Positions 44,537 to 62,631 of a DNA stretch of 64,000 bases are shown piece after piece. Every line of letters begins with the position of its first letter. Within the stretch, counting starts at the first letter, position 1. Under the pieces are notes generated by a model. The model saw only the letters and a program-made list of their open reading frames with translations. It did no database searches and was not told where the DNA came from. This DNA is from Myxococcota bacterium (lineage in GTDB: Bacteria; Myxococcota_A; Bradymonadia; UBA7976; UBA1532), in contig JAYZEG010000011.1 of assembly GCA_036337435.1 (NCBI GenBank), positions 32,001 to 96,000 on the forward strand, in the 5' to 3' direction. The position numbers and the translations under genes are program-made.

Positions 44537-46036
44537 TTAGCCAAGCCCAGGTAAATTGTCTTGTTGAGGATGCTTGTTGTATTTAGCGAGATACTCTTTG
44601 ACCCGGAGTTTCCTGGCCGTGTTCGCACTGCTCATGAAACGAATTTTGCCGAAGATGGGCCGCTCAGGACCCCACGGTCGGTCAAATCGGCCGAAAGTCC
44701 AACAAATGCCTGACCAGGAATTTGGATTTCGGCCATCTAAGGCGTACCGATTATTCAGTTCGACAATATAGTTAAAGGCGTCTTGTGGACTGGCACTCCA
44801 CTCTATAATTTTTTTGCCCCAGAGCATTCTTAAATAGTTGTGTATATACCCTTCAGAGAGCAACTGGTGCTGCGCTGCATTCCACAGTGGGTCGTGTGTT
44901 GTTCCCTGATCAAATGTGTCAAAATCATAGACGAACTCTCGTTTGTCTGATGCATGCACCGAGAGCGTTTCGATGGCCCATGGGGGTAAGGATTCGTATT
45001 GAAAGTAGTCGGAGGGATGTCTATGGCAGTAGACGTAGCCGAGTTCCCGCCACGTGATGATCTGGTCCAGGTAGCCTTCTACGCCCGGACTCAGGTTCCA
45101 CCAGCCTGCGCGACTCCCTTTATTAACCCCTGAGGCGTCATCGATGGTCCAGTTTTCTCGGGTGAGAAGGTCTCTTACGATCCTGTGACTCGAAATATGC
45201 CCGAAATGCAGACGGGCTGACATGCGACTTGTACCGTTCTTCGATGGATGGTTCCGATCGGTATCGTACTGGTCTGCTCGGTTATCGAGAAAACGGGCCC
45301 AACTGGCCAAAGCGGCAGTTTCCCCACCGGGCTCGTCGACACATCCAATTTTGTATCTTAACCCGCCGGGGATCAGCCCATCGTTGCACGTATCAGTACT
45401 GGACAAGGGTGCGGCTGGCCATTTCGTCTGAATGGGCTCTGGAACAGTTGCCCGTTGTGCAAAGCGACAATTTTGAAGGGGGTCTTCAATTGGAAAATTG
45501 TCTAAGAATTCTCTCATATTTTGCTGTAAAAAACGCCTAAACGAATAAGCCGTTTGGAATGTTCGCGGTGCATAGGCCAGGGGACAGAGCCCATTGCCAT
45601 CGACCAACTCAAAGCGGGCATGCACTTGTGGCGCGCTGGCTTCGACCATTCTGCTCAAAAAGTAACTTGGAAAGTGGTCTGTCACGACGTGGACGGCCCT
45701 TTCCGAGAGAGATGACAAAAGGCCTTTTCCTGCATTTTTCTCGGGCTCGAGATAAGGGTAATAGGTGATATTGGCGGAGCGAAAACGCTCTGCATTGGAC
45801 CGCATCCCGTCGATCATATAGCTGGTGATACGGTCAGATGCCCAGGGATGGTCAAATCGTAGGGCTTCGAAAACCAAAAGGGGTTTGCTGTATTGGCGGC
45901 ACAAATCGAGCGCGTATTGCAGAGCAAAGTTGTCTCGGGTGCGGCGCGCCGTTGTCATCCAATACAGAACATAATCGCGTTCCAGATAAATCGGAGAGTC
46001 GTTGAGGGTTTTCAGTCGCAAAGACGGAATTGACAT
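44537..46036 (-). CDS. phrB: Class II CPD DNA photolyase
   Basis: YVLYWM..A.R..DN.AL; THDPLWNAAQ; GYIHNYLRMLWGKK; LDGRNPN; DRPW.ERPIFGKIRFM. Confidence 0.95.
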   Translation of the reverse strand: MSIPSLRLKTLNDSPIYLERDYVLYWMTTARRTRDNFALQYALDLCRQYSKPLLVFEALRFDHPWASDRITSYMIDGMRSNAERFRSANITYYPYLEPEKNAGKGLLSSLSERAVHVVTDHFPSYFLSRMVEASAPQVHARFELVDGNGLCPLAYAPRTFQTAYSFRRFLQQNMREFLDNFPIEDPLQNCRFAQRATVPEPIQTKWPAAPLSSTDTCNDGLIPGGLRYKIGCVDEPGGETAALASWARFLDNRADQYDTDRNHPSKNGTSRMSARLHFGHISSHRIVRDLLTRENWTIDDASGVNKGSRAGWWNLSPGVEGYLDQIITWRELGYVYCHRHPSDYFQYESLPPWAIETLSVHASDKREFVYDFDTFDQGTTHDPLWNAAQHQLLSEGYIHNYLRMLWGKKIIEWSASPQDAFNYIVELNNRYALDGRNPNSWSGICWTFGRFDRPWGPERPIFGKIRFMSSANTARKLRVKEYLAKYNKHPQQDNLPGLG

Positions 46037-46084
46037 GGGTACACATTGTCCTTGTTGTCTGCTTGTGGGCTGGAGTCGAGGCCG

Positions 46085-47020
46085 TCAGCTCGCGGTGGTT
46101 CTCATGGCCACGACGTCTCTAATGCGATTGGCCATTTCTTCAAGACCCAAGACCTCGCAGCCCGCGATGTCATTTCGCGCATCAGCACCACCAAGCCAAA
46201 TTTGGATTTGGTCCGGTAAGATCGTTCGTAGGCGTCTGACGTAGGCGCGCTGGGTGCCCAACGGCACGTTGACCATCGACAAAGCAAGTGCGAATGGATG
46301 CTGTTTTAAAACGGCTTGGGCTACGATGTCGGCGGGTAACTGAGGCCCCAGGTTGATGACTTCTGCGCCGGCATCCGCCGCCACTCCAGCGGCGATCAAG
46401 AGACCAAGTTCGTGCTGTTCATCGTCAGGCGTTGTGAAGACAACCTTGGGCGCATTTGCGGGCGTCGAAGATGAATCGAATGTCCGCAATAACAGGCTCT
46501 TTAACGCTGCCGAGAGCAGATGTTCGGTCGCCATTGATATCTCGCCCTGCTCCCACAATGTGCCGACGCGTGTGAGCAAGACCCGGCAAAAGTGTGTTCT
46601 GAACGTTGAGGGTCCAAGTAAGCGGTATTGTATGCCCAAGCAGCGCTCAACATTTGTCGCGTCTAATTCCTTAGCATACCCGATCGCCTCCGTCACACTT
46701 CGGGGATCGAGAGTGACGTATTCGCCCTTTCGGGAGCTGCTTGGTCGTTCAACCGCTTTCGTCCGGACCGTCCCAGCGAGCTGTGCCAAAATCGCTTGGT
46801 CAAGCTCAACCAAGTCACTGATACGATGTCCGGCATCGACGGCAGCACCGAGAAGCTGAAACCGCTTTAGATGCGACTCAGTGTATCGCCGTGTGCCTCC
46901 CTCGGATCGAAGGGGCGTCACAACGTTGTACCGTCGCTCCCACGCTCGGATCGTGTGCGCGCTCAAGTTTGCAAGTTGTGCGATCTTACCAATCGAGTAT
47001 GTTTTCTGCTGCTCTGCCAA
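46085..47020 (-). CDS. carH: MerR-family adenosylcobalamin-binding photoreceptor/repressor (CarH/LitR)
   Basis: MerR HTH (YSIGKIA...TIRAWERRY...RSEGGTRRY); W-x9-EH (WEQGEISMATEH); ExHxxG (EQHELG); TTG start. Confidence 0.92.
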   Translation of the reverse strand: MAEQQKTYSIGKIAQLANLSAHTIRAWERRYNVVTPLRSEGGTRRYTESHLKRFQLLGAAVDAGHRISDLVELDQAILAQLAGTVRTKAVERPSSSRKGEYVTLDPRSVTEAIGYAKELDATNVERCLGIQYRLLGPSTFRTHFCRVLLTRVGTLWEQGEISMATEHLLSAALKSLLLRTFDSSSTPANAPKVVFTTPDDEQHELGLLIAAGVAADAGAEVINLGPQLPADIVAQAVLKQHPFALALSMVNVPLGTQRAYVRRLRTILPDQIQIWLGGADARNDIAGCEVLGLEEMANRIRDVVAMRTTAS

Positions 47021-47053
47021 CGTCGAACCTGTTTCTGAAAGTGTTACAGTTTT

Positions 47054-47062
47054 AGTATAGCA
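47054..47062 (-). promoter_or_regulatory. Extended -10 promoter element for carH-phrB
   Basis: Minus strand TGcTATACT, 34 nt upstream of the carH start. Confidence 0.6.
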
Positions 47063-47063
47063 T

Positions 47064-47188
47064 ACTTTAGACAGAATGGAATAAGTCTATACAAAAATAT
47101 CGACAAAAGAATTTTTTGTATAGATTTAATGTTGACATGTCTAAGTTTGAACGGTAAAACCTAGACATGGTTAGCGTTTGTCTAAATA
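47064..47188. promoter_or_regulatory. Putative CarH operator field and sigma70 promoter of the ECF sigma gene
   Basis: Eight TnnACA half-sites on both strands; perfect 12-bp inverted repeat TCTATACAAAAA (47086-97) / TTTTTGTATAGA (47113-24); TTGACA(47132)-17-TAAAAC. Confidence 0.72.
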
Positions 47189-47326
47189 AACGACGCAAGC
47201 CAGTTGAGAAAGTCGCAGAACGCATTCGATGCCAACTGTTCCCATAGTGAACTGTAAGGCAGCGGTGTGGGCCACGTCCGGCTCATTTGTCGGGCACAGC
47301 CAGCCAAAAAGAAAGGGCACGTTGCC

Positions 47327-47917
47327 ATGGGACGTCAAGCAAAGCCAGTCGTTGACACAAGCATCGTCGAAGCCGCTCAAGCGGGTGACTCGCGAGCTCT
47401 CGAGAAGTTGATCGGAGCGCACTATCCGGCGATGTGTCGCCTCGCTCTCCGCTATACCAACGACCCAGACCTGGCCAAAGATGCAGTGCAAGACGCGTGC
47501 ATTCAGGTCATGCGGTATTTCCCGCAGCTGCGCGATACAAGCAGCTTCAAGTCTTGGATGAGCCGTATCGTCATTAACTGCGTCCGATTACACCAGCGTC
47601 GGAATAAGAGATTTGTCGCGTTTGGCGATGGTATTGAGCGGACCCAAGAAGTTTGCCAGCAACAACCCGACGAAGTGGTGATGACCCGTGAAGAACTCGT
47701 CATTGTAGACGATTTTCTAAAGAGTGCCCAAAATGACGAACGGGCCATCTTTCTACAGCTTTACGTTGGCGGTGATGCGGTCGCGACTGTAAGCGAAAAA
47801 ACGGGCATCTCCGTCGCAGCACTGAAGACGCGCGTTCATCGAGCTCGGCGTCGACTTAAAAAATATATGCACACCAAGCATGACACGGATCTTGGCTTTG
47901 GCCAAATGGGTCTCTAA
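47327..47917 (+). CDS. ECF RNA polymerase sigma factor (LitS-like context)
   Basis: GD.RAL..L; AKDAVQDA; SFKSWMSRIVIN; G.S.AALKTRVHRARRRL. Confidence 0.92.
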   Translation: MGRQAKPVVDTSIVEAAQAGDSRALEKLIGAHYPAMCRLALRYTNDPDLAKDAVQDACIQVMRYFPQLRDTSSFKSWMSRIVINCVRLHQRRNKRFVAFGDGIERTQEVCQQQPDEVVMTREELVIVDDFLKSAQNDERAIFLQLYVGGDAVATVSEKTGISVAALKTRVHRARRRLKKYMHTKHDTDLGFGQMGL

Positions 47918-47997: not shown

Positions 47998-48969
47998 ATG
48001 GCATATTCGACTCAATCGAGCCCGGATTACGATAAACCACTACTCGGAATCAGCCGTTGTCTCCTCGGAGACACTGTCCGCTTTGATGGCGGGCACAAAC
48101 GGTCTCGCTACGCCGAGCAAACCCTCAGCCAGTATTTTCGATGGTACCCAGTCTGTCCCGAGGTTGAGTCTGGCATGTCTTCGCCCCGGCCCTCCATTAG
48201 GCAGGTTCGCGATGGAGGCGAGCTTCGTGTCGTGAGCGCGACGGGGGTGGATGTAACAGACGCGCTCAGGAAAGCGTCCGACAGGCGATTAGAGCAGATG
48301 CGTACAAAGCCGCTGCGCGGCTTTATCGTTGTGAATGATTCGCCGTCGTGCGGCCTGGAGCGCGTTCGAGTGTACGAGGGTTCTCATCCCGTTCGCACCG
48401 GGGTTGGAGTGTTTACAGCAGCACTCAGGAATGCGTATCCCAATATGCCAGTCGAAGAAAGCGGTCGTCTCAACGATGCACGCCTCAGAGAGAACTTCAT
48501 CCTGCGGGTCTATACATACCACCGGTTCAAAGAAATGGTCGACGATGGTCCATCGGTTTCCGATTTAATGCGATTTCACGCAGAGCACAAATACCTGTTG
48601 CTGGCCCACAATCCGTCGATGGCACGTCATCTCGGCGGACTGGTCGCGCAATGTTGCCGAGCAAACCTGGCGGCGGTACTGGCCGAATACGAGTCGGGTA
48701 TGATGGATTCGCTGGCCAAACCTGCGAAAGTAGGAGGTCATGTCGACGCCCTTCAGCACATCGTTGGTTTCATATCCGACCAGTTCACTCCAGAGACAAG
48801 CCAGCACATGCAGGAAACCATCGCGGCCTACGGTTCTGGTGAAATACCGCTGATTACACCGATTACGTTAATCAATCACTATCTTGCGGTTGCCGGTACC
48901 GATTGGGTCCGGCGGCAGTGGTACCTCAAACCGTACCCAGCCGCGTTATCATTGCGAAGTCGGATCTGA
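47998..48969 (+). CDS. DUF523(TudS)-DUF1722 fusion (YbgA / RudS-like 4-thiouridine desulfidase)
   Basis: GISRCLLG..VRFDGGHK, VCPEVE, SPSCG, EESGRL.D..LRENF, FH..HKYLLLAH, YL.PYP. Confidence 0.92.
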   Translation: MAYSTQSSPDYDKPLLGISRCLLGDTVRFDGGHKRSRYAEQTLSQYFRWYPVCPEVESGMSSPRPSIRQVRDGGELRVVSATGVDVTDALRKASDRRLEQMRTKPLRGFIVVNDSPSCGLERVRVYEGSHPVRTGVGVFTAALRNAYPNMPVEESGRLNDARLRENFILRVYTYHRFKEMVDDGPSVSDLMRFHAEHKYLLLAHNPSMARHLGGLVAQCCRANLAAVLAEYESGMMDSLAKPAKVGGHVDALQHIVGFISDQFTPETSQHMQETIAAYGSGEIPLITPITLINHYLAVAGTDWVRRQWYLKPYPAALSLRSRI

Positions 48970-48970
48970 A

Positions 48971-50194
48971 TCAGGGCTGCATTGAGCCGAAGGTGAGCCT
49001 TACAGCACCACGGAGATTAGCCCGGAAACCGTGAACGATAACAAAATAGCGCGTCTGGGCTCGGGCGAAGTACTCCACGCGGCTCTGAAAACCATGGCCG
49101 CCATCATCGTCACAATACAGTTCCGTATCGATATCGCCACAGTTTGTCCGCACGGAGAGAACCGTATCGAACTCCGAGCCGCTGGTGTCGAGGAAAACCA
49201 TTGCGTCATCCCGAGCAACAAAAGAGAACACTTGTTCTGACCCTCTCCCAGATTGTCCGCAGTTCGCATCGAGTTCATCTGCTGAATCCGCATTTGAACC
49301 CCAGTAGACACCGAACGTGTCCATTTCTATCGCGTCGATACAATTGTTAACGGTCTGCATCTGGCCGTCTGCTGGATCTGACCTATGGATACTGCCGCTT
49401 GAATCCATCCGATTGTTTGCAACGCAAATGCGCTGTTGGCAGTCCGGTTGAGTTGTATGGCAGCCACACCTTTGAGTCGCTGGACAATCGGCGTCGAGAC
49501 TACATTGTGCTTGGCAGGCTGCGTTCAAACAGATTGAACCAACGGGACAATCGGTCACCGCCGAACAGGCTTGATTAAGGGAAGTCCGCGATACGCAGAG
49601 TCCATCTCGGCAATGCTCTGTAGGTCCGCAGTGTTCGTTAAGTGAACAGCAGAGTTCGTTGTCGAAGCCTTCGTCGCTTATGCCATCGCAATCGTTGTCG
49701 ATGCCGTCGCAAACTTCCACTGATGCTGTGGCTGTGCCTGTTTGGCATACCGCCCCTACTTGGTTTGTTGAACACACAAGTTCGCCCAATGCGGTGCACC
49801 TATTTGCAAGCTGTGCCGAGCAAAGGGAACCAAGATAAAAAGCCTCATCAGTCTGGCCATCACAATCATCATCGTGGTCGTTACAAAACTCAATTCCTTG
49901 CCCGCAGGCACTCCAAATACCATTTACACATTGTCTCACACCACACCTGTCCAAGCAGGGTATGCGGTCACCTGTCGCGCAGGTGGAATCCGAGGTGGCG
50001 CGGCCGCTGGGTGTGCTTCTTTCTGTTGGCGAATCAATGAAGGTCAAGCCAGTGCTCTCGAGACTCGCATCGCGTTCATTTTGAAGGGACGGGGCTCCTT
50101 GCCTCAACGAATTTTCATCGAGTCCTGAAAACTCAGCGCAACCGATTGATGCCAAAACGACTAGGGGTGACAATAACCGGCGCATCATTTCCAT
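48971..50194 (-). CDS. Cys-rich lipoprotein with MopE-like repeats and a PPC-like domain
   Basis: CNDHDDDCDG, CDGIDNDCDG; DTSGSEFDTVLSVR...CDDD...YFVIVHG. Confidence 0.82.
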   Translation of the reverse strand: MEMMRRLLSPLVVLASIGCAEFSGLDENSLRQGAPSLQNERDASLESTGLTFIDSPTERSTPSGRATSDSTCATGDRIPCLDRCGVRQCVNGIWSACGQGIEFCNDHDDDCDGQTDEAFYLGSLCSAQLANRCTALGELVCSTNQVGAVCQTGTATASVEVCDGIDNDCDGISDEGFDNELCCSLNEHCGPTEHCRDGLCVSRTSLNQACSAVTDCPVGSICLNAACQAQCSLDADCPATQRCGCHTTQPDCQQRICVANNRMDSSGSIHRSDPADGQMQTVNNCIDAIEMDTFGVYWGSNADSADELDANCGQSGRGSEQVFSFVARDDAMVFLDTSGSEFDTVLSVRTNCGDIDTELYCDDDGGHGFQSRVEYFARAQTRYFVIVHGFRANLRGAVRLTFGSMQP

Positions 50195-51376: not shown

Positions 51377-51967
51377 CTATTCGTCGTCGTTTGCAGGGAG
51401 GCTGATTACGGTTTCAAGCGCATGTAACCTGCCGTTTGTCGCAACGATGTCTGCTTCTAAAACTTTCGAATTCCCGATGAGAACCTCACCATCGGCCGAT
51501 GGAGAAATGTCCACCGCTCGACCAATCATTTCAACTTCGGTCACTTGTGCTAAGTCGCTCGTTGAGTAGTCGCCTTCTGCGACGTGAGTCAGAATGAACT
51601 CATGCAGGTAATTTTGGTCGGTTCGAATCTCTTCGAGCAGGGTTTCTGGCATTGCTTGCACCGCGGAATTAATCGGGACGAATACAGTAAATGGTCCAGG
51701 GCTGCGCATTGCATCGAGCAGACCGATTAAATTGACCAGCTCCAGGACCTCGGAAAAACGTGGATCGGTCTCCAAGATCTCAGCGATGGTTTGGGTTGGC
51801 TCCGTTGGGATTGTATCTGCATTGTTGGCCATATTGTCTAGTTGGGGACCCGAGCTGCTCATTTGCCCTTCATTCGTCGGTGCGTTCTCGGATGTTGATT
51901 CTTCTCCGCAGCCGGTCAGAAGGCCAGTGAACAAGACGGTGACCAAAAGGATTCTAGATGTCTTCAT
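51377..51967 (-). CDS. Fasciclin (FAS1) domain lipoprotein
   Basis: Lipobox LTGC; GPFTVFVP.N; ADIVATNGRLH. Confidence 0.9.
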   Translation of the reverse strand: MKTSRILLVTVLFTGLLTGCGEESTSENAPTNEGQMSSSGPQLDNMANNADTIPTEPTQTIAEILETDPRFSEVLELVNLIGLLDAMRSPGPFTVFVPINSAVQAMPETLLEEIRTDQNYLHEFILTHVAEGDYSTSDLAQVTEVEMIGRAVDISPSADGEVLIGNSKVLEADIVATNGRLHALETVISLPANDDE

Positions 51968-53307: not shown

Positions 53308-54039
53308 CTACTCTTGGGGTGGGCCATTCTCGCAGACATCAGCGAAGGTCGCGTCCACAGTCCGTGCCAGCCCGATAAGTATTCCGCACATGGTCTGTGT
53401 GCAGATAAGACCAGCTTGACCGCATTGGTCCTGAACGCAGCCTTCGTACAAAGGAATGTAACTGTCGTCTCCCAAGGGGTCGCATTGCTCGATAGCGCAG
53501 GCTGCAAAGAACGCACAAGCGGCGGCGCATTGTTCGTCACCGCCACCGGGACATTCAGGGCCGGCTGCTGGTGGAGCCGTATCGCATGCGACGCCGCATT
53601 CACCGTCGATGCACGTTGCTTCACAGCGAGGAACGGTCGAGCCAGCACAATCTGATGCAGCTACACATTCAGGCATTGGACCACCGGCCCCGCCTTCAGC
53701 ACCCGCACCACCGGCACCACCCTCGGCACCGGCACCACCCGTGCCACCGACTGCACCCGTTCCACCAGCACCGCCTTCAGCACCAGCACCGCCAGCACCA
53801 CCGATTGCACCAGTACCGCCAGCACCGCCCTCGGCACCAGCACCGCCAGCACCGCCAGCACCACCGGCACCACCGGCACCACCGGCACCACCGACCGCAC
53901 CGGCACCACCGGCACCACCTACTGCACCCGTACCACCAGCACCGCCGAAGTTATTGGTATCATCGGATGAACTGTCGCTCTCGCCGCCACAGGCAGCCAG
54001 AACTAAACTCAAAATAAAATAAACGCCTTGCTTCTTCAT
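53308..54039 (-). CDS. Lipoprotein with Gly-rich linker and Cys-rich C-terminus
   Basis: Lipobox LAAC; GAGGAGAEG repeats; many Cys in the C-terminal half. Confidence 0.8.
   Translation of the reverse strand: MKKQGVYFILSLVLAACGGESDSSSDDTNNFGGAGGTGAVGGAGGAGAVGGAGGAGGAGGAGGAGGAGAEGGAGGTGAIGGAGGAGAEGGAGGTGAVGGTGGAGAEGGAGGAGAEGGAGGPMPECVAASDCAGSTVPRCEATCIDGECGVACDTAPPAAGPECPGGGDEQCAAACAFFAACAIEQCDPLGDDSYIPLYEGCVQDQCGQAGLICTQTMCGILIGLARTVDATFADVCENGPPQE
53684..53948 (-). repeat. Coding Gly/Ala-rich repeat, same unit as 32318..32530
   Basis: gcaccacc/gcaccgcc arrays on the + strand. Confidence 0.88.
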
Positions 54040-54120
54040 TGCTTCCTTCTTTCAAACAGGCTTTCTGTGTTGCGATGTGTAACGCATCGATTATTCGTCG
54101 TCGGCGCTTGTAGCCGAAAT

Positions 54121-55419
54121 TTAACTTAAGTCCAAGGTTCTTGTTGCACCACTTTGCTCATGACCCAGCGCTCGCGCAGTGTTTTCGAGCCGATTTTGTC
54201 CTTGGCTGCGCAGCGGCATAACCAGTCCTGCTAAGAAAGCTGGGACATGCTGCAAAGGGAGTTTCCAGACTGCGCGTTTACCCATATTGGCTTCGAGAAA
54301 ATGAGTGAGCAGTCCCGGGCTACGTGATAACCCGCGGATCGCCAACCGTCTTAGGAGGGGCACTCTCGCCAACACGAGTGCCAGCTTGACCATGCGTACA
54401 CTTTTCCAGTAAATCCGAAAAATGCGCCGGCCAAGACCGCTTAGGTCATCCGCACCTAATCGATTGGTTCGCACCAATATTGGGAGCTCATGTGCTACAA
54501 CCTCTGCCTGCTGTAATGCCACGGAAAGGCCCTCTCCCGTGATGCCGTCCACGTAGCCCAGGGCATCACCCAACAGAATAGTTCGATCTTGGGTTGCAAC
54601 CTTTGCTTGGACTGCCAGTGGGCCCGTTGCTTGTTGATTAGATACGGTCTTACATCCGCTCACTCGTCTTTCTAGTTGGGGAAAGTTCTTTAACAGAACG
54701 GACATCAGATTTCGTCCAGCTCGGGCCGGTTTAAAACGTGATTTATCCCAAAGAAATGCGACTTCGACACGACTTTCAGACGAGGGTGTAACGTAAGCTT
54801 CTATTCCATTTGACCAATACACTTCGACGTGATTTGTCCACGGAGTAACCTGAAAGTGTTGGCGCGCGCCCCAACGCTTGTCCCTCACCGCTGGAGAACC
54901 GTCGAGTTTCAATAGTTTCCTGACTTTCGAATTTCGGCCGTCTGCACCGATCACGACAGCGGCTTTCATTCCGAACTGGCCGTCGATACCGCGAAGTTTT
55001 ATATCAACATGGGATTCGAATGATTCGATAGCCAGAAGCTGAGTCGACTCCATCAGGGTTACGTAAGGGCTGTCTTGGGCCGCCTTGTAAAGTGCATCGC
55101 TCAGTCCTGTTCTACGAATGCCATAACCAACCCCGCTGTCGAAGTTTGCTTGCGCGATCGCACCTTGGTCACAAATCCAGCGTATGCCATAAAATGCCCG
55201 GAGTGAATCATGATCGATCTGTTCGAAGATCCCCATTCGGTCTAGCGTTTCGACGCCACAAGGCATCAGGCCTTCGCCACAAACTTTATCGATTGGCCAT
55301 TGCTTCTTGTCGACAACCGTTACGAACAGCCGCCTTTTCGCGAGGGCTATCGCACAGGCGAGCCCGGCAGGACCGCCTCCGACGATGACAACATCCACTT
55401 TTCGTTGGGTAAGACTCAT
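54121..55419 (-). CDS. FAD-dependent monooxygenase (FtpE/SrsC-like)
   Basis: VGGGPAG, DKVCGEGLMP, IGADG, LGDA.GYVD.ITGEG. Confidence 0.88.
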   Translation of the reverse strand: MSLTQRKVDVVIVGGGPAGLACAIALAKRRLFVTVVDKKQWPIDKVCGEGLMPCGVETLDRMGIFEQIDHDSLRAFYGIRWICDQGAIAQANFDSGVGYGIRRTGLSDALYKAAQDSPYVTLMESTQLLAIESFESHVDIKLRGIDGQFGMKAAVVIGADGRNSKVRKLLKLDGSPAVRDKRWGARQHFQVTPWTNHVEVYWSNGIEAYVTPSSESRVEVAFLWDKSRFKPARAGRNLMSVLLKNFPQLERRVSGCKTVSNQQATGPLAVQAKVATQDRTILLGDALGYVDGITGEGLSVALQQAEVVAHELPILVRTNRLGADDLSGLGRRIFRIYWKSVRMVKLALVLARVPLLRRLAIRGLSRSPGLLTHFLEANMGKRAVWKLPLQHVPAFLAGLVMPLRSQGQNRLENTARALGHEQSGATRTLDLS

Positions 55420-55423
55420 GGAA

Positions 55424-57187
55424 TCACCGCGTTCGCTCGACAAGCCTGATGTGGCTTGCTCGATGTCGAATGTGTTGAACCAAACCACTGCCCATCTCTT
55501 TGAGGATGAGCCCACGGGTTACTTTTTTTCCAGCACTTAAGGTGCCGTTAAGCCAGCAACTTCGCGCTTCGCTGCGCCTAATTTTACCCGATGAGGTTCG
55601 TGGTAATGTGCCGGGGTCAAGTAATTCGAATTCGGATACGGACAGACCCACGCCGGCCTGAACCGCTGCAATGGCTTCATTGACCACGGCGTCTGCATCC
55701 ACATGCTCTCGCCCTTTTTCGGCCAGCAGAATCAATCGCTCACTACCGGCCTGCTCGTCATGAACTCCAAAAGCAGCGACACAACCAGGTCGAATTCCAT
55801 CAAGACCATCCAGGGATTGTTCGACGAGTGCGGGGTCATGATTTCGACCGTTTATGATGACGATGTCCTTTTCGCGACCGCACAGATACAGCTCGCCATT
55901 CAGAATGAAGCCTGTGTCTCCCGTATCGAGCCAGCCATCCTCGTCCAACGTCTCAGCGGTCGCATCCGGTCGGTTGAGGTAGCATTGCATGACGCCCGGA
56001 CTCTTCACGTGGACACGTCCGACTCGTGCGTCCGAGAGTTTGGCTCCGTCGCCGTTGCGAACTTCGATAGAGCAGCCGGCGAGTGGTTTACCGAGGGATG
56101 GAATTTGGCGACCGTCCGCCGTGATTTCCGCGATCCCTGATTGTTCCAACCGGTCTGCATCGAAATGGGTCCATTGTGGCTTCTGGTTGGGTTCTGAAAA
56201 GGTGACGGCCAGCGTCGCTTCCGCAAGGCCATAAACGGGCGTGATTGCGGTCGAGTCGAAGCCGACAGCCGAGAATCGACTTGAAAACTCCTCCAGGGTT
56301 CGCGGATGAACTGGCTCTGCTCCACACAGCGCCACTTTCCAGTTCGCTAGATCGAGGCCATCCAAATCGCAATCACGGGTCTTGTTCGCTGTGAGTCCGA
56401 AAGCAAAATTGGGAGCCACCGATATTGTCGCCTGGCTTTCAGACAGAGCTTGGAGCCAACGAACCGGTTTGGTCACAAACCGTTCTGGACCGAGCAGGGT
56501 CAGTGGCGATGAACTCACAACGGCCGAAATCATACAGCCAACGAGCCCCATGTCATGATAGAGCGGCAACCAACTGACACCGCTCCGTTCATCAGCGGCA
56601 ACCGGTAGGGCGTCTAAAATGGCGCGCGCGTTGTACAGGATGTTTTCATGGCTGAGAGCCACCGGTTTCGGATCACCGGTGCTGCCGGAGCTGAACTGGA
56701 TGGCTGCAATATCTGCGGCGGGTGCAGTCGGCGTGTATCCAACATGGCCATTTTTCTGCAGCTGCGCCACAGTGTGACAGCCGAGTTTTGGATCCGCCAT
56801 TCGCACAGGGGTCCCCAAAAGGGGCATCAACCGCTTATCGGTCAAAACGGCAGCGCACTCTACTGAAACCAGCATCTTTGCCGTGCGAATCTTCCACTCT
56901 TCGACTTTACCCAGTCGCGCTGGTGGATAGAGCGCCGTCGGCACCCCACCGGCAATGCAAACGCCGAAGAACGCTGCATAGAATTCTGGACCGGTGCCGA
57001 GAACAATGGCCACGGTGTCTTTAGGCTTTAGACCGCGATGGACCAAACTGTCTGCAACGGCGCGTGCGCTTTGCATTAAAATTTCGTAGCGATAAAACTG
57101 TGACCGGCCCGGATCAGACCAAAAGGTTACGCCGCTGACCCCCAGACTGGCTCGCTCTAAAGCTTGAATCAGCGTGTCAGCTTGCAT
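55424..57187 (-). CDS. Fatty acyl-AMP ligase (FtpD-like)
   Basis: QFSSGSTGDPK, SWLPLYHDMGL, PVYGLAEATL, WLDTGD, GR.KD, LPRTSSGK. Confidence 0.93.
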   Translation of the reverse strand: MQADTLIQALERASLGVSGVTFWSDPGRSQFYRYEILMQSARAVADSLVHRGLKPKDTVAIVLGTGPEFYAAFFGVCIAGGVPTALYPPARLGKVEEWKIRTAKMLVSVECAAVLTDKRLMPLLGTPVRMADPKLGCHTVAQLQKNGHVGYTPTAPAADIAAIQFSSGSTGDPKPVALSHENILYNARAILDALPVAADERSGVSWLPLYHDMGLVGCMISAVVSSSPLTLLGPERFVTKPVRWLQALSESQATISVAPNFAFGLTANKTRDCDLDGLDLANWKVALCGAEPVHPRTLEEFSSRFSAVGFDSTAITPVYGLAEATLAVTFSEPNQKPQWTHFDADRLEQSGIAEITADGRQIPSLGKPLAGCSIEVRNGDGAKLSDARVGRVHVKSPGVMQCYLNRPDATAETLDEDGWLDTGDTGFILNGELYLCGREKDIVIINGRNHDPALVEQSLDGLDGIRPGCVAAFGVHDEQAGSERLILLAEKGREHVDADAVVNEAIAAVQAGVGLSVSEFELLDPGTLPRTSSGKIRRSEARSCWLNGTLSAGKKVTRGLILKEMGSGLVQHIRHRASHIRLVERTR

Positions 57188-57440
57188 CTCGCATCTCCGA
57201 CTGTCGGTATAAAATAAGGCGCGCGATATCGTCGACAGTTTCGGGTGGATTATCTGCATCTTCACCCAGATACATTTCGAATTCGTTCTCTAATTCGAGG
57301 GCCAAACTCAGGAGACCGACACTATCCAATCCGAGATCAGCTTGTAGCCTCGCCTTTGGTCCCACCAAGCTTCGCTCCACCCCGCAGTGTTCTTCGAGTA
57401 TGTTTTTGATAACCATCAGGCAATCGGCATAGGTACTCAT
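57177..57440 (-). CDS. Acyl carrier protein (FtpC-like)
   Basis: DLGLDSV phosphopantetheine site; acidic; 87 aa; overlaps both neighbours. Confidence 0.92.
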   Translation of the reverse strand: MSTYADCLMVIKNILEEHCGVERSLVGPKARLQADLGLDSVGLLSLALELENEFEMYLGEDADNPPETVDDIARLILYRQSEMRDAS

Positions 57441-58015
57441 GACGTCCGTCCAATCGGTAAAAAGCGATTTTTATTTTCAAACGTTGCCTCATAATTATTA
57501 AGTCGGCTGAGTTCTCTCTCTTCCGTTCGGATGCGCACCAGTAGCAACCATGCGTTTGCGATGCTGAAAACAGCGGCCGTAATCCAGCCATTGAAAATAA
57601 GTGGAAGAGCCGCGATCTCGAGTACAACCCCTAAATAATTGGGGTGTCGGATGAATCGGAAGATGCCCTCGTTAACGACTCGAGCGTGAGGCAACACAAT
57701 GATCCGTGTGGTCCATCGAGGGCCTAGCGTTTTAATGGCGATCAGCCGCAGCGCTTGACCCGCAATGAGCAAAGCGAGTCCCGTGACAACGAGAAAGACC
57801 GGTGGGGTTTGATTTCGCCATAGTGCTTCACCAACGCAGGCGAAAAGCCAAATGGTATGAAGGCTTGCCATCACAGGGTAGTGTCCTGACCCGACCTCGA
57901 TTGCACCTTGTTCCAAAAGGCGCTTCGTATTGTGTTTTGACAAGCGCAGTTCAAGTAACCGCTGGACCGAAACGACCAGGACGAGTCCGATGTATAGTGT
58001 CGTGCTTGCAATCAT
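57437..58015 (-). CDS. Isoprenylcysteine carboxyl methyltransferase family protein (FtpB/SrsB/BpsB-like)
   Basis: QRLLEL..S..N, HY..M...H, LG.RWTTRI, RHPNY, RI..EE. Confidence 0.92.
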   Translation of the reverse strand: MIASTTLYIGLVLVVSVQRLLELRLSKHNTKRLLEQGAIEVGSGHYPVMASLHTIWLFACVGEALWRNQTPPVFLVVTGLALLIAGQALRLIAIKTLGPRWTTRIIVLPHARVVNEGIFRFIRHPNYLGVVLEIAALPLIFNGWITAAVFSIANAWLLLVRIRTEERELSRLNNYEATFENKNRFLPIGRTS

Positions 58016-59079
58016 CAGTGCACCGTTTCTAACAAATTAAGCTCTGCGCAAAAGGCCGGGCCCATCGCAGCCATCATGCCAACCGAGCCGGCCGGCGGTA
58101 GATTCTTCATGCGTTCTCTAAGTACGAATAAAACTGAGGACGAACTCATATTCCCGTACCGAGCCAAACTGTCCCAAGACAGCGCCAGCGCATCTTCATC
58201 CAGACCTAACGCAGTCTCCATCGCCTTCATCACTTTGGGGCCGCCTGGGTGGGCTACGAGGAAATCGGGTCTCGCTTGCTCTAGGCCGGAATCGGCCATC
58301 AGTGCCTCCACCTCGGATGGGAGTTCTTCCGCGACGATCTTGGGTACGTCGGGTGACAGGACGACTTTGAACCCGCTGTCAACAACGTCCCAGCCCATCA
58401 CCCGTTCAGTGTCCTGAAAGAACGCTGACCTTGGGTTAGACCATCTGAGCGGTGCTGTTGCAGCCAGTGGGTGTTCATCTCCAACCATCAAGACAGCCGC
58501 ACAGCCGTCACCAAACAGACCAGAGGCAACAATGTTGGCCACTGACAAATCCTGTTTCTGGAGTGTGAGCGAACACAGTTCCACGGAGACCAGCAACGCC
58601 GCTTGATCTGGATGCCCGTCCAGATAGTCACCGACGCGATTAATACCTGCGACACCGGCTAGACACCCTAAACCGAACAAGGGCATCCGCCGCGTGTCAC
58701 GCCGGAACGGGAGTTGATTCATGAGACGCGCATCTAAGCTGGGTACGGCGAGCCCCGTGACGGTGGTACTGACGATCGCGTCAATGTCACTTGCATCTAG
58801 GGCCGCTGCGTCAAGCACTTTAGCGACCGCTTCTGTTGCCATCGGAACGGCGGCTTTGACCCACGCGGTATTGAACGATCCAAAGCCGGATAGCTCCTGG
58901 TATGCTTCCAGGGGGATTGCCAAATGTCGGCCTCCGACGAGCACATTACGTTGGAAGTCAATGATGCGCTGCGGATTAAAATACCGTTCCCGCCAGTCCG
59001 CCATCAAAGCGTCTGTGAGTTGATCCTGATCATAATAGTGCGGTGCAAGGCTGCACTCGACGCTGTGTATGTACGGCAT
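58015..59079 (-). CDS. Type III polyketide synthase (FtpA/SrsA-like)
   Basis: Catalytic triad GLGCLAG, AHPGG, YGNMSS; VELCSL, LFGDG, MGP. Confidence 0.96.
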   Translation of the reverse strand: MPYIHSVECSLAPHYYDQDQLTDALMADWRERYFNPQRIIDFQRNVLVGGRHLAIPLEAYQELSGFGSFNTAWVKAAVPMATEAVAKVLDAAALDASDIDAIVSTTVTGLAVPSLDARLMNQLPFRRDTRRMPLFGLGCLAGVAGINRVGDYLDGHPDQAALLVSVELCSLTLQKQDLSVANIVASGLFGDGCAAVLMVGDEHPLAATAPLRWSNPRSAFFQDTERVMGWDVVDSGFKVVLSPDVPKIVAEELPSEVEALMADSGLEQARPDFLVAHPGGPKVMKAMETALGLDEDALALSWDSLARYGNMSSSSVLFVLRERMKNLPPAGSVGMMAAMGPAFCAELNLLETVH

Positions 59080-59162
59080 GGTCAGGATCTCCCCTCTTCA
59101 GTGGCAAAACCGAGAACGATGAAGCCGGACTGACCCCTGCTCCGAACCGATTTTCCGCATAT

Positions 59163-59229
59163 AATCTACCGTCCGGAAGATTAATTGTCAACATTTTGTC
59201 TAGGTTTAATGGATAAATCTATGCAAAAA
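59163..59229 (-). promoter_or_regulatory. sigma70 promoter of the PKS operon overlapped by CarH-type 11-bp direct repeats
   Basis: Minus strand TTGACA(59191-86)-17-TAGATT(59168-63); tandem AACCTAGACAA and AATGTTGACAA. Confidence 0.75.
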
Positions 59230-59316
59230 CCTGTTCGAAAAATTATTTAAGTTAGTTAACGCCGTGCCGTCCAACCCGACATCGGTTGGCAGGACGCATG
59301 CTCAAGTCATCGTATC

Positions 59317-60057
59317 TCAGCAACCGCCTTCGGTATTCAGCCTGAAAATTTTGGTTGCTATTCCTTGATACATGACAGAACTAAATGGTTGCTGCCCAAA
59401 TGTAAAACCGCCTTTCCATCCCACGGGACCAATTCCGGTTTTTCGTTCAATTTTTGCCCCATCTTTTCTGAGCCATGATTCTAACTCGTTGGGTTTAATA
59501 AACTTTTTCCAGTCATGGGTGCCTTTAGGAACCACCCCAATTAAATTTTCAGCAAGTGTAATCATGACAACTTTCGCTAAGAAAGTTCGGTTTATGCAGC
59601 TGAAGAAGAGCCGTCCGCCTGGTTTCAAAACGCGGAGTATTTCTGTCAGTACAACCCGTGGATCGTCGACATGGACGAGGACGTCTGTGCAGATGACCAG
59701 GTCGAACACCTCATCTCCGAAGGGGAGTTTTTCCGCTGCCCCAACTCGGTAGTCGACATGCAAACCATCCTGTTCAGCTTTGTTACGCGCTGCCTGAATG
59801 GCACCAGCTGCTGAATCGATACCGGTCACGTGGGCACCGGCCTTGGCGACCAGCGTGCTTAAAAAACCTCCGCCACAGCCGACATCCAATAGGTGCATGC
59901 CGAACGGGTCGACGAAACGCGACAGGTAGGCCATGCGAGGATGAGCCAGACGGCGTAAAGGGTCGAGTAGAGTGGCCTCTTCATCCCACCATGGATCCAC
60001 TTGATCGTAGATCGTGAGGTCATTTCGAATCACTTTTGGTTGGCGTATCATAGACAT
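59317..60057 (-). CDS. UbiG-like SAM-dependent O-methyltransferase
   Basis: NDL.IYD...WW, LDVGCGGG, GTHDWKKFIKP; start trimmed from the 409-aa ORF. Confidence 0.88.
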   Translation of the reverse strand: MSMIRQPKVIRNDLTIYDQVDPWWDEEATLLDPLRRLAHPRMAYLSRFVDPFGMHLLDVGCGGGFLSTLVAKAGAHVTGIDSAAGAIQAARNKAEQDGLHVDYRVGAAEKLPFGDEVFDLVICTDVLVHVDDPRVVLTEILRVLKPGGRLFFSCINRTFLAKVVMITLAENLIGVVPKGTHDWKKFIKPNELESWLRKDGAKIERKTGIGPVGWKGGFTFGQQPFSSVMYQGIATKIFRLNTEGGC

Positions 60058-60080
60058 CCGGTCGTGATAGAAAGTCGTGG

Positions 60081-60518
60081 TTAGTGAGTCGCGCGTCGGG
60101 CTAGGCTGGGTGCCCACAACCGCTCTGAGGTTTGTGCGGCAAGCCAGTTGCCCGTCGGTATAAAAGCGGCAAAGAATAATGTCATCGCGAGGGAGAAGTT
60201 TCGCTCTCCCAACAGCGTGTCGATGATGTTGCCCTGAAATGCAATCGATGTCTCGAAAGCGTATCCACAGATTTCCAGAAGGCCAAGTACCAGAAGTCCC
60301 CACAAATACTGGTCGAATGCGGGTTTCGTACGGCACACGATCGATGCAGGAATGAGGTAGAGACCGTAACACGTCAGAACCTGCCACCAGTTGGCAAACA
60401 TGGCTATTTCCGCGTATTGGCCAATGGCGTTCATTGTAAAGCCCAGGGGTATATAAACCACAACATAAGCCAGCAATAGTCGCTTGGGTACGTCTAGTCG
60501 GTCGATCACATTGCGCAT
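60081..60518 (-). CDS. Small integral membrane protein (about 4 TM)
   Basis: Hydrophobic segments; co-oriented and 23 nt upstream of the ubiG-like gene. Confidence 0.75.
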   Translation of the reverse strand: MRNVIDRLDVPKRLLLAYVVVYIPLGFTMNAIGQYAEIAMFANWWQVLTCYGLYLIPASIVCRTKPAFDQYLWGLLVLGLLEICGYAFETSIAFQGNIIDTLLGERNFSLAMTLFFAAFIPTGNWLAAQTSERLWAPSLARRATH

Positions 60519-60560
60519 GGGTCGCTCCACGAATCCGAAAGGACACACATTATACACATA

Positions 60561-60604
60561 AATCTACCAATTGGAAGGTTTTTGTTTACATTTTTGTCCA
60601 GATT
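60561..60604 (-). promoter_or_regulatory. Promoter/operator resembling the PKS promoter
   Basis: Minus strand AATCTGGACAA-A-AATGTAAACAA...CTTCC...GGTAGATT. Confidence 0.65.
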
Positions 60605-61249
60605 TCTTCATCAGTGAGTATTCGCCAACTGCGATCCAGGCAGTCAGAGGTCCGTTTGTGGTGGTCATCTTTGGGGTCTTGTTTGCCAACAAACAGTCAT
60701 ATCAGCGACGCGCTCGATTAAAGCCTACTGAAATTTAACACGGCCACGTAGTGACGTTTCGAAGACTGAAAGCGAAAAGACCCTCTCCAGGTCACTGGGC
60801 GGTGAATGAAAACCGTGCCAGCGTTCGTCGCTCTAGCTGAATCGCACAGCAGTCCGAACGAGTCGATGCACACTGGGGCCGCTCTTCGCAACCGTCCCAT
60901 TCGCACACCAGAACGATCGCAGCAGGCATAAACGCTGCGTGACGGCCCGCTGAGACGCTGTCGGTTTGCCCACACTCCATCGGGAACCTAAAGGCACTTC
61001 CCATCAGCAGATCCAATCATCGTTATCCGCCAGGTCTCAATCCAGGACGACATACAGTCTGTCTTCGATCTGTTACAGTTTCGATGTAGACCGAGATGGA
61101 GGGTCAGTTCAGTCGAACGATCCGCGGTGGCCCAGACGCATTCTGCAACAGAATGTCTGGTAACCTTGGCGCATTGGACCGCATCTGCACAGTGGACCAG
61201 CCGTAATGTATATATCCGGCGTGTTATTTTTGTCAGGACCAGCGTGCTT

Positions 61250-62143
61250 ATGAACAGTCTAGTGACCGGCGCAACCGGTTTAATCGGTCAGGCCCTTATC
61301 AAACGACTCGACGACCCGGTCCTCATGTCTCGTCGACCGGAGGCATTGGCATCTGGGTCTCGTCTGAAATGGCCTGTGGACGCCGGCACCGCGGCACCCG
61401 ATCGGGCTGTTGACGTGGTTTTTCACCTTGCGGGAGAACCGGTTGCCGGACGTCGCTGGACTCAACAGCGCATGGATGAAATACGAAACAGCCGTGTTGA
61501 TGGGACTCGGCAGTTGGTTTCCTGGATTGCCAACTGGCCGTCGGCGCCAAAGGTGCTTGTCTGCGCGTCGGCTATCGGATTTTACGGAGACCGGGGAGAC
61601 GAAATTCTCGTCGAGAACAGTCAGCCAGGGTCGAGTTTTCTCGCCGAGCTGTGCCAGGACTGGGAAGCAGAGGCGGCGAAAGCCGAGGCCCTTGGCGTGA
61701 GAGTTGTCTTTGCACGAATCGGGATCGTCCTAGCCAAAAACGGCGGCGCCCTAGAAAAAATGCTGCCGCCGTTTAAGATGGGCATAGGTGGGCCGCTCGG
61801 GAGCGGGCGCCAATGGATGTCGTGGATTCATCTGGATGACGTTGTCGGTCTTCTCCTCCATGCGGCACACGCCGATATATCGGGACCACTCAACACAGTC
61901 GCCCCCCAACCCAGCACAAATGCCGACTTCAGTCGAGTCTTAGCGGGCCACCTCAGTCGCCCGTCAGTACTGCGCGCCCCGGCATTCGCCCTAAGGCTGG
62001 CCTTAGGGAAAATGAGCGACATTGTCCTCGCGTCCCAAAAAGTGCTGCCGCGGGTTGCTGAAGAAACTGGCTACGTCTTTCAACAGCCCACACTCGATGG
62101 GGCGATTAAATCATGTCTAAGAATCAAGGGAGAACAGCCGTGA
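61250..62143 (+). CDS. TIGR01777-family NAD-dependent epimerase (YfcH/SDR39U1-like)
   Basis: TGATGLIG, HLAGEP...RWT, ASAIGFYG, RIGIVL...GGAL, GSGRQWMSWIH. Confidence 0.95.
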   Translation: MNSLVTGATGLIGQALIKRLDDPVLMSRRPEALASGSRLKWPVDAGTAAPDRAVDVVFHLAGEPVAGRRWTQQRMDEIRNSRVDGTRQLVSWIANWPSAPKVLVCASAIGFYGDRGDEILVENSQPGSSFLAELCQDWEAEAAKAEALGVRVVFARIGIVLAKNGGALEKMLPPFKMGIGGPLGSGRQWMSWIHLDDVVGLLLHAAHADISGPLNTVAPQPSTNADFSRVLAGHLSRPSVLRAPAFALRLALGKMSDIVLASQKVLPRVAEETGYVFQQPTLDGAIKSCLRIKGEQP

Positions 62144-62631
62144 CGATTGAGCCCAATGGAAACGAATATATCCTTCATCAGGAACAGTTCATCGCCCAAC
62201 CGCTGAGCGAGGTGTGGGCCTTTTTTTCGAACGCAGAAAACTTAGAACGTCTGACACCCGATTTCCTCAACTTCAAAATATTGACACCGACCCCAATCGA
62301 CATGTTCGAGGGCACTTTGATCGATTACCGCATTCGGCTTTTCGGTGTCCCCATGAATTGGCGTACCGAGATCATACATCTCGAACCTGAGGTGCGCTTC
62401 GTAGACCAGCAACTCAAGGGACCCTACGCAAAGTGGTACCATGAGCATCGATTTGAGGAGGTTGACGGTGGTACGCTGATGACCGACCGGGTCGAATATC
62501 GAGTTCCTTTTTCAGCCCTAGGACATCTGGCTCATTCGGTGATGGTAAAGCGCACTTTGCAGCGTATCTTTCAATATCGATATGACGCCGTGAGTGAGGT
62601 CTTCGGCGAGCCGTCCGAGCAAGCTGCCTAG
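62140..62631 (+). CDS. SRPBCC (START-like) family protein
   Basis: VWAFF...NL..LTP, FVD.Q..GPY..W.HEH.F, IF.YR; GTGA overlap (alternative ATG at 62113). Confidence 0.9.
   Translation: MTIEPNGNEYILHQEQFIAQPLSEVWAFFSNAENLERLTPDFLNFKILTPTPIDMFEGTLIDYRIRLFGVPMNWRTEIIHLEPEVRFVDQQLKGPYAKWYHEHRFEEVDGGTLMTDRVEYRVPFSALGHLAHSVMVKRTLQRIFQYRYDAVSEVFGEPSEQAA

Follow-up and report, generated by a model that had tools for sequence, protein, structure and literature searches.

Background

Photoreceptors of the CarH/LitR type are known mainly for switching carotenoid genes; in Pseudomonas their targets include photolyase, RudS and a few others. Here we describe a locus in which such a regulator appears to be coupled to a lipid biosynthesis cassette. 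The locus lies in a 64,000-nucleotide stretch of a Myxococcota genome (G000:C11:32001-96000; hereafter the window, with positions counted from its first letter), where a module of genes for the regulator (CarH1), a photolyase, an extracytoplasmic function (ECF) sigma factor and RudS is found about 12 kb from the core of a type III polyketide synthase (PKS) cassette. The observations support a CarH-type operator common to the cassette and the carH promoter region, its tandem form being unique in the genome. The regulator and the PKS cluster are both of known kinds; it is their coupling that is new.

CarH operators are described as tandem 11-bp nnnnTnnACAn repeats overlapping the -35 or the -10 element, with three repeats in Thermus, four in Bacillus, or three plus a pseudo-repeat (PMC9304148). 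RudS is a tRNA 4-thiouridine desulfidase that is frequent, together with photolyase, in LitR-controlled light operons (PMC11417400).

On the lipid side, the closest relatives of the locus are the SrsABC, Ftp and Pkq pathways. Sources on such pathways reportedly include Hayashi 2011 and Funabashi 2008, which we know by way of the papers that cite them. Homology to the three pathways is the basis for the chemistry proposed below (PMC10896814, PMC9927152). Five gene clusters are conserved across Myxococcota, among them the alkylresorcinol/alkylpyrone type III PKS cluster, which alone of the five has no assigned ecological role (PMC12766979). A search of the full-text literature, subscription-only papers and supplements being outside its scope, returned no paper in which CarH/LitR, or light, controls a native type III PKS, in agreement with a preliminary description of this DNA whose author knew of no CarH-regulated type III PKS. 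In one paper that brings CarH and a type III PKS together, the PKS serves only as a reporter (PMC11519972).

Results

Light module and PKS cassette

The source assembly (4.38 Mb on 95 contigs, about 53 % G+C) is 87 % complete. Gene families were assigned by Pfam and NCBIfam scans and structure matches by PDB searches, and the assignments bear out the gene content that the preliminary description had listed. DNA of the locus occurs in seawater and marine metagenomes, as contigs from sequencing runs, and the source bacterium seems to be marine. The genes of the light module are:

44537-46036, minus strand: photolyase (Pfam FAD_binding_7 and DNA_photolyase, both under the gathering score)
46085-47020, minus strand: CarH1, CarH/LitR-type regulator (Pfam MerR_1, B12-binding_2 and B12-binding)
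47267-47917, plus strand: ECF sigma factor, divergent from carH (Pfam Sigma70_r2, r4_2 and Sigma70_ECF; TIGR02937 over cut-off)
47998-48969, plus strand: RudS-type gene, a TudS desulfidase-DUF1722 fusion, downstream of ecf (PF04463, E 4.7e-39; PF08349, E 1.8e-32)

CarH1 combines an N-terminal MerR-type helix-turn-helix (Pfam MerR_1, E 3.1e-14, residues 8-73) with a B12-binding module of the four-helix-bundle and Rossmann type and matches Thermus thermophilus CarH at E 1.6e-20 (PDB 5C8D/3WHP). Its W-x9-EH and E-x-H-x-x-G stretches align to the T. thermophilus protein; W-x9-EH and E/D-x-H-x-x-G are what we take to be the CarH B12-module motifs. The photolyase gene starts 49 nt downstream of carH and is probably co-transcribed with it; its NCBIfam match, TIGR00591 phr2, reaches 325 bits, under the cut-off of 550. 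The true start of the ECF sigma gene is possibly the ATG near 47327, and the carH-ecf pairing is retained in related genomes of the genus (G002, G001 and both loci of G003). RudS and photolyase are both known from LitR light operons, which marks these genes as a true light module. Elsewhere the genome has a gene for an IcmF-like enzyme that depends on adenosylcobalamin (AdoCbl), with B12-binding and MeaB parts, which indicates that the cell handles AdoCbl.

The genes of the PKS cassette, all on the minus strand, are:

60081-60518, minus strand: memX, small hydrophobic membrane protein of about 145 aa, the first gene after promoter P2
59317-60051, minus strand: UbiG-family S-adenosylmethionine-dependent methyltransferase, 244 aa (TIGR01983 UbiG, 175.3 bits against a cut-off of 102.95; Pfam Methyltransf_11 and related families)
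58015-59079, minus strand: type III PKS, FtpA/SrsA/Pks11-like (Pfam Chal_sti_synt_N/C and FAE1_CUT1_RppA)
57437-58015, minus strand: ICMT-family membrane methyltransferase, SrsB-like (Pfam ICMT, E 3e-31)
57177-57440, minus strand: stand-alone acyl carrier protein (ACP; Pfam PP-binding, E 1.6e-5; NCBIfam ACP models at E 1e-10, under cut-off)
55424-57187, minus strand: fatty acyl-AMP ligase (FAAL; Pfam AMP-binding; reading frame open back to 57265)
54121-55515, minus strand: flavin adenine dinucleotide (FAD)-dependent monooxygenase, SrsC/UbiH-like (Pfam FAD_binding_3; start uncertain, reading frame overlapping the end of the FAAL gene)

A CarH-type operator shared by the light module and the cassette

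CarH-type repeats stand at three places, two of which, P1 upstream of the PKS gene and P2 upstream of memX, belong to the cassette:

47064-47188, both strands: carH-ecf operator cluster, nine TnnACA half-sites, with a tandem pair at 47084/47096
59163-59228, minus strand: P1 promoter/operator (-35 TTGACA at 59186-59191, 17-nt spacer, -10 TAGATT at 59163-59168)
60561-60604, minus strand: P2 promoter/operator (-35-like TAAACA at 60583-60588, -10 TAGATT at 60561-60566)

The carH-ecf intergenic region is 246 bp long, its half-sites are of the type AAyCTAGACAAAA / AATCTATACAAAA, and the operator cluster overlaps a TTGACA-N17-TAAAAC promoter facing ecf. At P1 the boxes (59185-59206) are two 11-bp tandem repeats, AACCTAGACAA (59196-59206) and AATGTTGACAA (59185-59195), the second of which coincides with the -35 TTGACA hexamer. 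They are followed by a pseudo-repeat, TTAATCTTCCG (59174-59184), that fits the looser form N4-T-N3-C, so that the coding strand reads AACCTAGACAA, AATGTTGACAA, TTAATCTTCCG and then GGTAGATT with the -10 element; an inverted half-site lies at 59216-59228. P2 is laid out alike, though its -35-like hexamer is weaker: its tandem boxes AATCTGGACAA (60594-60604) and AATGTAAACAA (60582-60592) are 12 bp apart, with one A between them, and its downstream part reads CTTCC-N4-GGTAGATT. The geometry of CarH operators, tandem nnnnTnnACAn repeats overlapping the -35 element, is thus present at P1 (two full repeats and the pseudo-repeat) and at P2 (two repeats).

A 13-mer matrix was trained solely on the nine TnnACA half-sites of the carH-ecf intergenic region, and the genome was scanned with it on both strands. 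The 4.38 Mb hold 1104 matches of at least 10 bits, the cut-off used for counting pairs. Exactly three same-strand pairs 10-13 bp apart occur genome-wide, namely the training site at 47084/47096, P1 and P2. At other spacings, outside the three regions, the mean over twenty 4-bp bins is 0.6 pairs per bin, compared to a uniform expectation of 0.56. Between 39 and 64 kb of the window all matches of at least 12 bits, the cut-off applied to neighbouring genes, fall inside the carH-ecf region, P1 or P2. The pattern ANNTNNACANNANNTNNACA, which is independent of the matrix, has eight matches in the genome, P1 among them. The repeats that the preliminary description had placed at P1 and P2 are therefore real and, by the whole-genome count of tandem pairs, specific.

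Ranking by summed cluster score, in which P1 came 5th and P2 8th of 889, was set aside: it also picks unrelated AT-rich promoters, so that the defining tandem geometry was counted instead. Further top-ranked clusters lie at thrS, an alpha-amylase/carbohydrate-binding module (CBM) gene, a RecN/SMC-family gene, the gene for an S1-domain protein, prkA and a solute-binding protein gene. A single CTAGACAAA half-site is present about 135 nt upstream of the IcmF-like gene (G000:C1:31874, L233); standing alone, it may be a chance match.

Direct derepression of the cassette by light is, on the evidence of the sequence, the best reading of these operators and in our judgement a fairly probable one. We infer that CarH1 is an AdoCbl-dependent photoreceptor repressor which, in the dark, would sit on the tandem TnnACA repeats at the carH-ecf region, P2 and P1. 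The carH-ecf promoter region would serve both the carH-photolyase and the ecf-rudS units, P2 would drive memX and the UbiG-family methyltransferase gene, and P1 would drive the genes for PKS, ICMT, ACP, FAAL and FAD monooxygenase. Since a repeat covers the -35 hexamer, bound CarH would exclude RNA polymerase. Light would break the Co-C bond, the oligomer would leave the DNA, and all three units would be derepressed.

The boxes might instead belong to another DNA-binding protein, or be relics of a duplicated AT-rich promoter, with CarH1 having no control over the cassette. Such an origin would account for the likeness of P1 and P2 over about 50 nt, which includes the spacer CTTCC-N4-GGTAGATT that CarH operators do not need, and it gains from the clusters of high summed score at AT-rich housekeeping promoters (thrS, S1-domain, RecN/SMC-family, prkA). 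It fits poorly with a tandem arrangement confined to the carH region, P1 and P2, with a half-site that four genomes conserve across five carH-ecf regions and that agrees with the published CarH repeat (PMC9304148), and with the presence of a CarH paralogue at the same spot in the relatives without boxes. We consider this explanation very unlikely.

A second alternative takes the form of a two-tier cascade like that of LitR and LitS: CarH1 would repress the carH and ecf promoters alone, the light-induced ECF sigma would transcribe the cassette, and the boxes at P1 and P2 would be incidental or secondary. The promoters themselves tend to speak for direct repression. The P1 hexamers, TTGACA-17-TAGATT, are of sigma-70 type and form the top sigma-70-like match between 44.4 and 63.8 kb, the tandem boxes lie on the -35 hexamer, and no common ECF-type -35/-10 pair was recognised, the region upstream of ecf holding just a sigma-70-like promoter. 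P1 and P2 both fit sigma-70 hexamers, and nothing recognisable as an ECF-type motif was seen at them. The cascade can draw on the ECF sigma gene that stands divergent from carH at every locus of the genus seen, on a homologue (38 % identical) about 5 kb from a crt-linked CarH in genome G004, on the ECF sigma and B12 module beside the PKS of locus L061, and on the LitR-LitS precedent (PMC11519972). Weighing the two sides, we judge the cascade unlikely.

Conservation and variation within the genus

Four members of the genus were compared: G000, the source of the window, G002 (81 % complete), G003 (89 %) and G001 (100 %). Upstream regions of relatives were scanned at a cut-off of at least 9 bits. 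At this level the carH-ecf region has nine boxes in G002, four in G001, and five and four at the two loci of G003; the half-site is thus a conserved feature of this regulator's own promoter.

G002 and a G002-like metagenome contig, L152 (PKS 93 % identical), retain the whole arrangement. In L152, P1 and P2 each keep two boxes, those of P2 scoring 12.7 and 13.4 bits, and P2 is the sole conserved island in an intergenic region of about 650 bp that is otherwise unalignable. At P1 the first repeat, the hexamers and the spacer are nearly unchanged amid diverged flanking DNA. The G002 assembly breaks on both sides of P1, where contigs C54 (L033) and C61 (L055) begin, one of them 36 nt before the PKS start and the other 81 nt beyond the methyltransferase stop, a gap that L152 bridges. 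The ~50-nt repeat common to P1 and P2 may have caused these breaks.

G003 (PKS 79 %) and the metagenome contig L156 (PKS 81 %) have a CarH paralogue, CarH2, between the methyltransferase and PKS genes. These copies, which share 67-69 % identity with one another and 27 % with CarH1, form a well-supported clade of their own. The G003 protein hits T. thermophilus CarH with E values of 1.2e-23 and 1.4e-23 (3WHP/5C8D), with W-x9-EH and E-x-H-x-x-G stretches readable in its translation and alignment. The PKS promoter of G003 and L156 is still recognisable (TTGATC-17-TAGAAA); of CarH1-type boxes there is one weak case in G003 (10.6 bits) and none in L156. The cassette has, at the loci examined, either CarH1 boxes or its own CarH, never both.

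G001 retains, in order, ecf, rudS, a MopE-like gene, two uncharacterised genes, and the TIGR01777, SRPBCC and acyltransferase genes. It is without the genes from memX through the FAD monooxygenase and without the O-methyltransferase and fasciclin genes found beside the cassette in the window, and has a CAP-domain gene instead. As the flanks are kept without the cassette, the latter is a discrete gain or loss within a light-response locus, and the TIGR01777, SRPBCC and two uncharacterised genes are ancestral neighbours and not cassette parts.

The carotenoid question

The preliminary description had seen the cluster as standing in place of carotenoid genes and called for a search of the remaining genome. 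Within the 87 %-complete assembly G000 there is no match to phytoene synthase (PF00494) and none over cut-off to the CrtI family (TIGR02734; best 90.5 against 238.1 bits), and crtB was not found in any of the three cassette-bearing members of the genus, G000, G002 and G003. In the wider family, a CarH homologue lies 1.6-1.9 kb from crtB in six of the 13 genomes that hold crtB (G004, G007, G008, G016, G017 and G023), so that the classical pairing exists in sister genera. CarH1 is about 28-30 % identical to these crt-linked homologues, and CarH1 and CarH2 form clades apart from them.

G001 does have carotenoid genes. Its crtE-crtB-crtI-crtY-blh run adjoins a bacteriorhodopsin-like gene (L147:2535-9815, G001:C42) and is a retinal/rhodopsin cluster, with no CarH boxes of at least 9 bits upstream of crtE. 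The proposed replacement therefore holds in an evolutionary sense and not as a literal swap at one locus, G001 having the CAP-domain gene at the position of the cassette and its crt genes elsewhere.

Genes and predicted product of the cassette

The nearest solved structure to the PKS is Mycobacterium tuberculosis Pks11 (4JAO, E 2.5e-87). Residues C139, H277 and N310 are invariant across seven orthologues and are, we presume, the Cys-His-Asn triad of type III PKS. The ACP translation shows a DSxG-type serine motif. For the FAAL, the top NCBIfam model is NF006624 (454.5 bits, under the cut-off of 600), and translation likely begins with the ATG at 57187; the FAD monooxygenase matches UbiH/UbiF/COQ6 and related models at E 1e-20 to 1e-23, under their cut-offs.

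A 409-aa open reading frame (ORF) at 59317-60546, earlier read as one UbiG-like methyltransferase, was rejected as a single gene. Its N-terminal 170 codons hold five stops in G002, where the overlapping memX frame is open and conserved, so that the frame comprises two genes, memX and the 244-aa methyltransferase; the assignment to the UbiG family stands. MemX has no Pfam or NCBIfam match, and Atlas returns unnamed clusters for it, mostly from Bacteroidota. Just downstream of the methyltransferase gene, at 59262-59285, is a hairpin-forming CCAACCGATGTCGGGTTGG (coding strand) that is kept in L152 amid diverged surroundings; having no T-run, it is not a canonical terminator.

The cassette was set against 160 PKS loci, the 80 best from genome_contigs and the 80 best from metagenome_contigs (2.03 Mb, 14,872 ORFs). 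An ICMT gene is beside the PKS in 134 of these, FAAL in 96, FAD monooxygenase in 92 and ACP in 76. UbiG-type and plant-type methyltransferases, fasciclin and SRPBCC genes are nearly limited to this lineage. The screen found memX in none of the 160 loci; tblastn does find it in L152.

By homology, the FAAL would load a fatty acid on the ACP and the PKS would extend it to an alkylresorcinol or alkylpyrone, which the ICMT methyltransferase and the flavin hydroxylase could turn into an alkyl-methoxy-quinol or quinone. The UbiG-type and plant-type methyltransferases may add further methylation. The predicted product is a phenolic or quinone lipid of the membrane, made on illumination, and its role would most likely be that of a lipid-phase antioxidant in cells in which no carotenoid pathway was found.

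CarH1 could also control the cassette for another end, with light and B12 as cues of surface or oxic conditions and the product a respiratory polyketide quinone or an envelope lipid. A head group like that of ubiquinone is suggested by the UbiG-family and UbiH-like enzymes, and the polyketide quinones of homologous operons serve respiration in mycobacteria and Streptomyces spores (PMC9927152, PMC10896814). Co-regulation with photolyase and RudS and the missing carotenoid genes suit photoprotection equally well, and we take the respiratory or envelope role to be unlikely.

In two metatranscriptome runs, short contigs cover the PKS, O-methyltransferase, FAD monooxygenase, lipoprotein, methyltransferase and SRPBCC genes. 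Such contigs reveal neither starts nor levels and may stem from DNA carry-over, and the parts they leave uncovered are uninformative.

Neighbouring genes

Five further genes lie between the light module and the cassette or beyond the latter:

51377-51967, minus strand: fasciclin-domain protein, 34 nt downstream of the O-methyltransferase gene; membership uncertain
52002-53183, minus strand: plant-type O-methyltransferase (Methyltransf_2 plus dimerisation domain), on the strand of the core and found only with the cassette
53308-54039, minus strand: Gly/Ala-rich, Cys-rich putative lipoprotein, of no Pfam family
61127-62143, plus strand: TIGR01777 oxidoreductase, probable ATG at 61250 (316.9 bits against a cut-off of 207.35)
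62113-62631, plus strand: SRPBCC protein (Pfam)

The plant-type O-methyltransferase is a candidate, and an uncertain one, for membership in the light-controlled unit: it is next to the PKS in one of the 160 loci, L152, and is not in the cassette-less G001 locus. Fasciclin recurs beside the PKS solely in L152 and L061 and is likewise not in the G001 locus. The lipoprotein gene has a homologue in G001, which is without the cassette, and is therefore part of the ancestral locus and not of the cassette. Within this gene, the Gly/Ala-rich low-complexity part at 53458-54104 has a contig depth of about 100x in metagenome runs, compared to about 5x elsewhere, with many loose ends; similar repeats in unrelated organisms are the probable source of both.

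The TIGR01777, SRPBCC, fasciclin and lipase/amine-oxidase neighbours have no box of at least 12 bits and no conserved upstream island, and so could not be placed in the regulon. Of the CarH-type repeats that the preliminary description ascribed to cluster promoters, those at P1 and P2 are where it put them, and the TIGR01777 and SRPBCC genes are without boxes.

On its flanks the locus has several large, Cys-rich secreted proteins whose repeats are of the MopE metal-binding type or of DUF4215 (25570-28641, 42465-44519 and 48971-50194). The minus-strand genes past rudS include a MopE-like protein and an uncharacterised secreted protein before fasciclin, and the MopE-like gene between rudS and the cassette has a TTGACA-17-AATATT promoter-like site of its own.

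Beyond the genus

A linkage of carH and PKS conserved across Myxococcota, which the preliminary description had considered, was not borne out, a MerR-type CarH being present at L156 only among the 160 PKS loci. Searching the 80 genome_contigs loci by tblastn with CarH1, CarH2 and photolyase gave only a B12-domain match in L061. A hidden Markov model (HMM) of CarH/B12 proteins also gave a weak match in L127 (E 3.3e-4).

L061 is a contig of an Acidobacteriota metagenome-assembled genome. At 9995-15958 it carries a type III PKS-ICMT-SRPBCC operon, convergent with another operon that encodes fasciclin, DUF1475 and DUF1295 proteins, an ECF sigma and a 369-aa protein with B12-binding_2 and B12-binding domains but without MerR. 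In another phylum, then, these lipid genes seem to have as their neighbour a second B12/sigma module of different build. At L154:5600-5794, a PKS orthologue of 72 % identity is preceded by different palindromes, GTAGTCAACTGACTAC and ACTAGTCAGT, and CarH boxes are absent there, which suggests that this lineage uses another type of regulator.

Discussion

Several observations weigh against direct control of the cassette by CarH1. The binding is deduced from sequence, in an assembly that is 87 % complete. CarH1 reaches 92.7 bits on the NCBIfam TransRegCarH equivalog model (NF052513), compared to a cut-off of 400, and we therefore call it a CarH/LitR-family protein and not an orthologue of a studied CarH. 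A search of the genome, 87 % complete, for adenosyltransferases of the PduO and CobA types gave no match. P1 and P2 have just two full repeats each, compared to three or four in the studied operators, P2 is spaced at 12 bp, and the second P1 repeat of L152 reads TnnACT. The resemblance of P1 and P2 over about 50 nt means that they may descend from one duplicated promoter and hence not be two independent events. Direct activation might instead come from the divergent ECF sigma. P1 is spanned by a contig from an RNA library, X19 (58940-59251), as would fit read-through from upstream or DNA carry-over and not a start at P1.

The reach of the link tells in the same direction. It is lineage-restricted, with CarH2 in one of 28 family genomes. 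The HMM, built from 11 CarH or B12 proteins, picked out just L156 and L061 among the 160 PKS loci, and both were in its training set. In nine upstream regions (L153-L155, G004, G021, G012, G018 and G024, with G001 crtE as control), where the distant PKS orthologues have 45-73 % identity, there are zero boxes of at least 9 bits.

Taken more broadly, and tentatively, since we give it somewhat less than even confidence, the locus may tell of a marine lineage, one in which no carotenoid pathway was found, where a B12-dependent light switch was rewired onto a polyketide-lipid cassette to give an inducible membrane photoprotectant. The wiring would have evolved twice within the genus, once through CarH1 boxes and once through a cassette-borne CarH paralogue, with a third, convergent link in an Acidobacteriota genome, whose PKS-ICMT-SRPBCC set has an ECF sigma and a B12 module without MerR as neighbours.

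A CarH operator on the cassette, together with a CarH paralogue in relatives, leads to the testable hypothesis that light prompts the synthesis of these lipids. The CarH link thereby hints at the purpose of a widespread and poorly understood lipid pathway; if the hypothesis is true, the widespread type III PKS alkyl-lipid clusters would gain an ecological role, that of light-stress defence. The locus is also an example of a rewired regulon, the moving part being the operator in one case and the regulator in the other, and P1 and P2 offer a compact natural promoter pair that may respond to light and B12.

Comparison with known systems

The ftp cluster of M. xanthus, whose genes we take to run in the order ftpA-E, has an FAAL and a stand-alone ACP as found here. 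Together with S. griseus srsABC and mycobacterial pkqABC it also has the combination of type III PKS, ICMT-type methyltransferase and flavin hydroxylase (PMC10896814, PMC9927152). The present cassette differs in its added UbiG-family and plant-type methyltransferases, in memX, and in its CarH boxes or embedded CarH paralogue; for ftp, srs and pkq no light control is reported in the literature searched.

On the regulatory side, the Pseudomonas class II LitR operons (phrB-litR-rudS) likewise join a photolyase, a MerR/B12-family regulator and RudS in a light module (PMC11417400). Those regulators are of class II, one of them acting as the effector of a LOV photoreceptor, and the accessible part of the report mentions no polyketide target (PMC9758184). 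Streptomyces LitR-LitS resembles this locus in placing regulator and ECF sigma on a bidirectional promoter region, which the regulator binds in Streptomyces and which carries boxes here (PMC11519972). There the sigma factor drives crt promoters, whereas here the cassette promoters look sigma-70-type and carry boxes for the regulator itself.

Also close is CarH/LitR class I, with T. thermophilus CarH (PDB 5C8D/5C8E) and the CarH proteins of M. xanthus and B. megaterium. Common to these and to CarH1 are the MerR helix-turn-helix joined to a B12 module, the W-x9-EH and E-x-H-x-x-G stretches, the tandem TnnACA operator over the -35 element, and a site in the regulator's own promoter region. Besides the two full repeats per cassette promoter, the 12-bp spacing of P2, the low equivalog score and the low identity to crt-linked homologues, what sets the present locus apart is the set of targets: crt genes in class I, and here a type III PKS cassette, a photolyase and an ECF-rudS unit that CarH1 is predicted to control.

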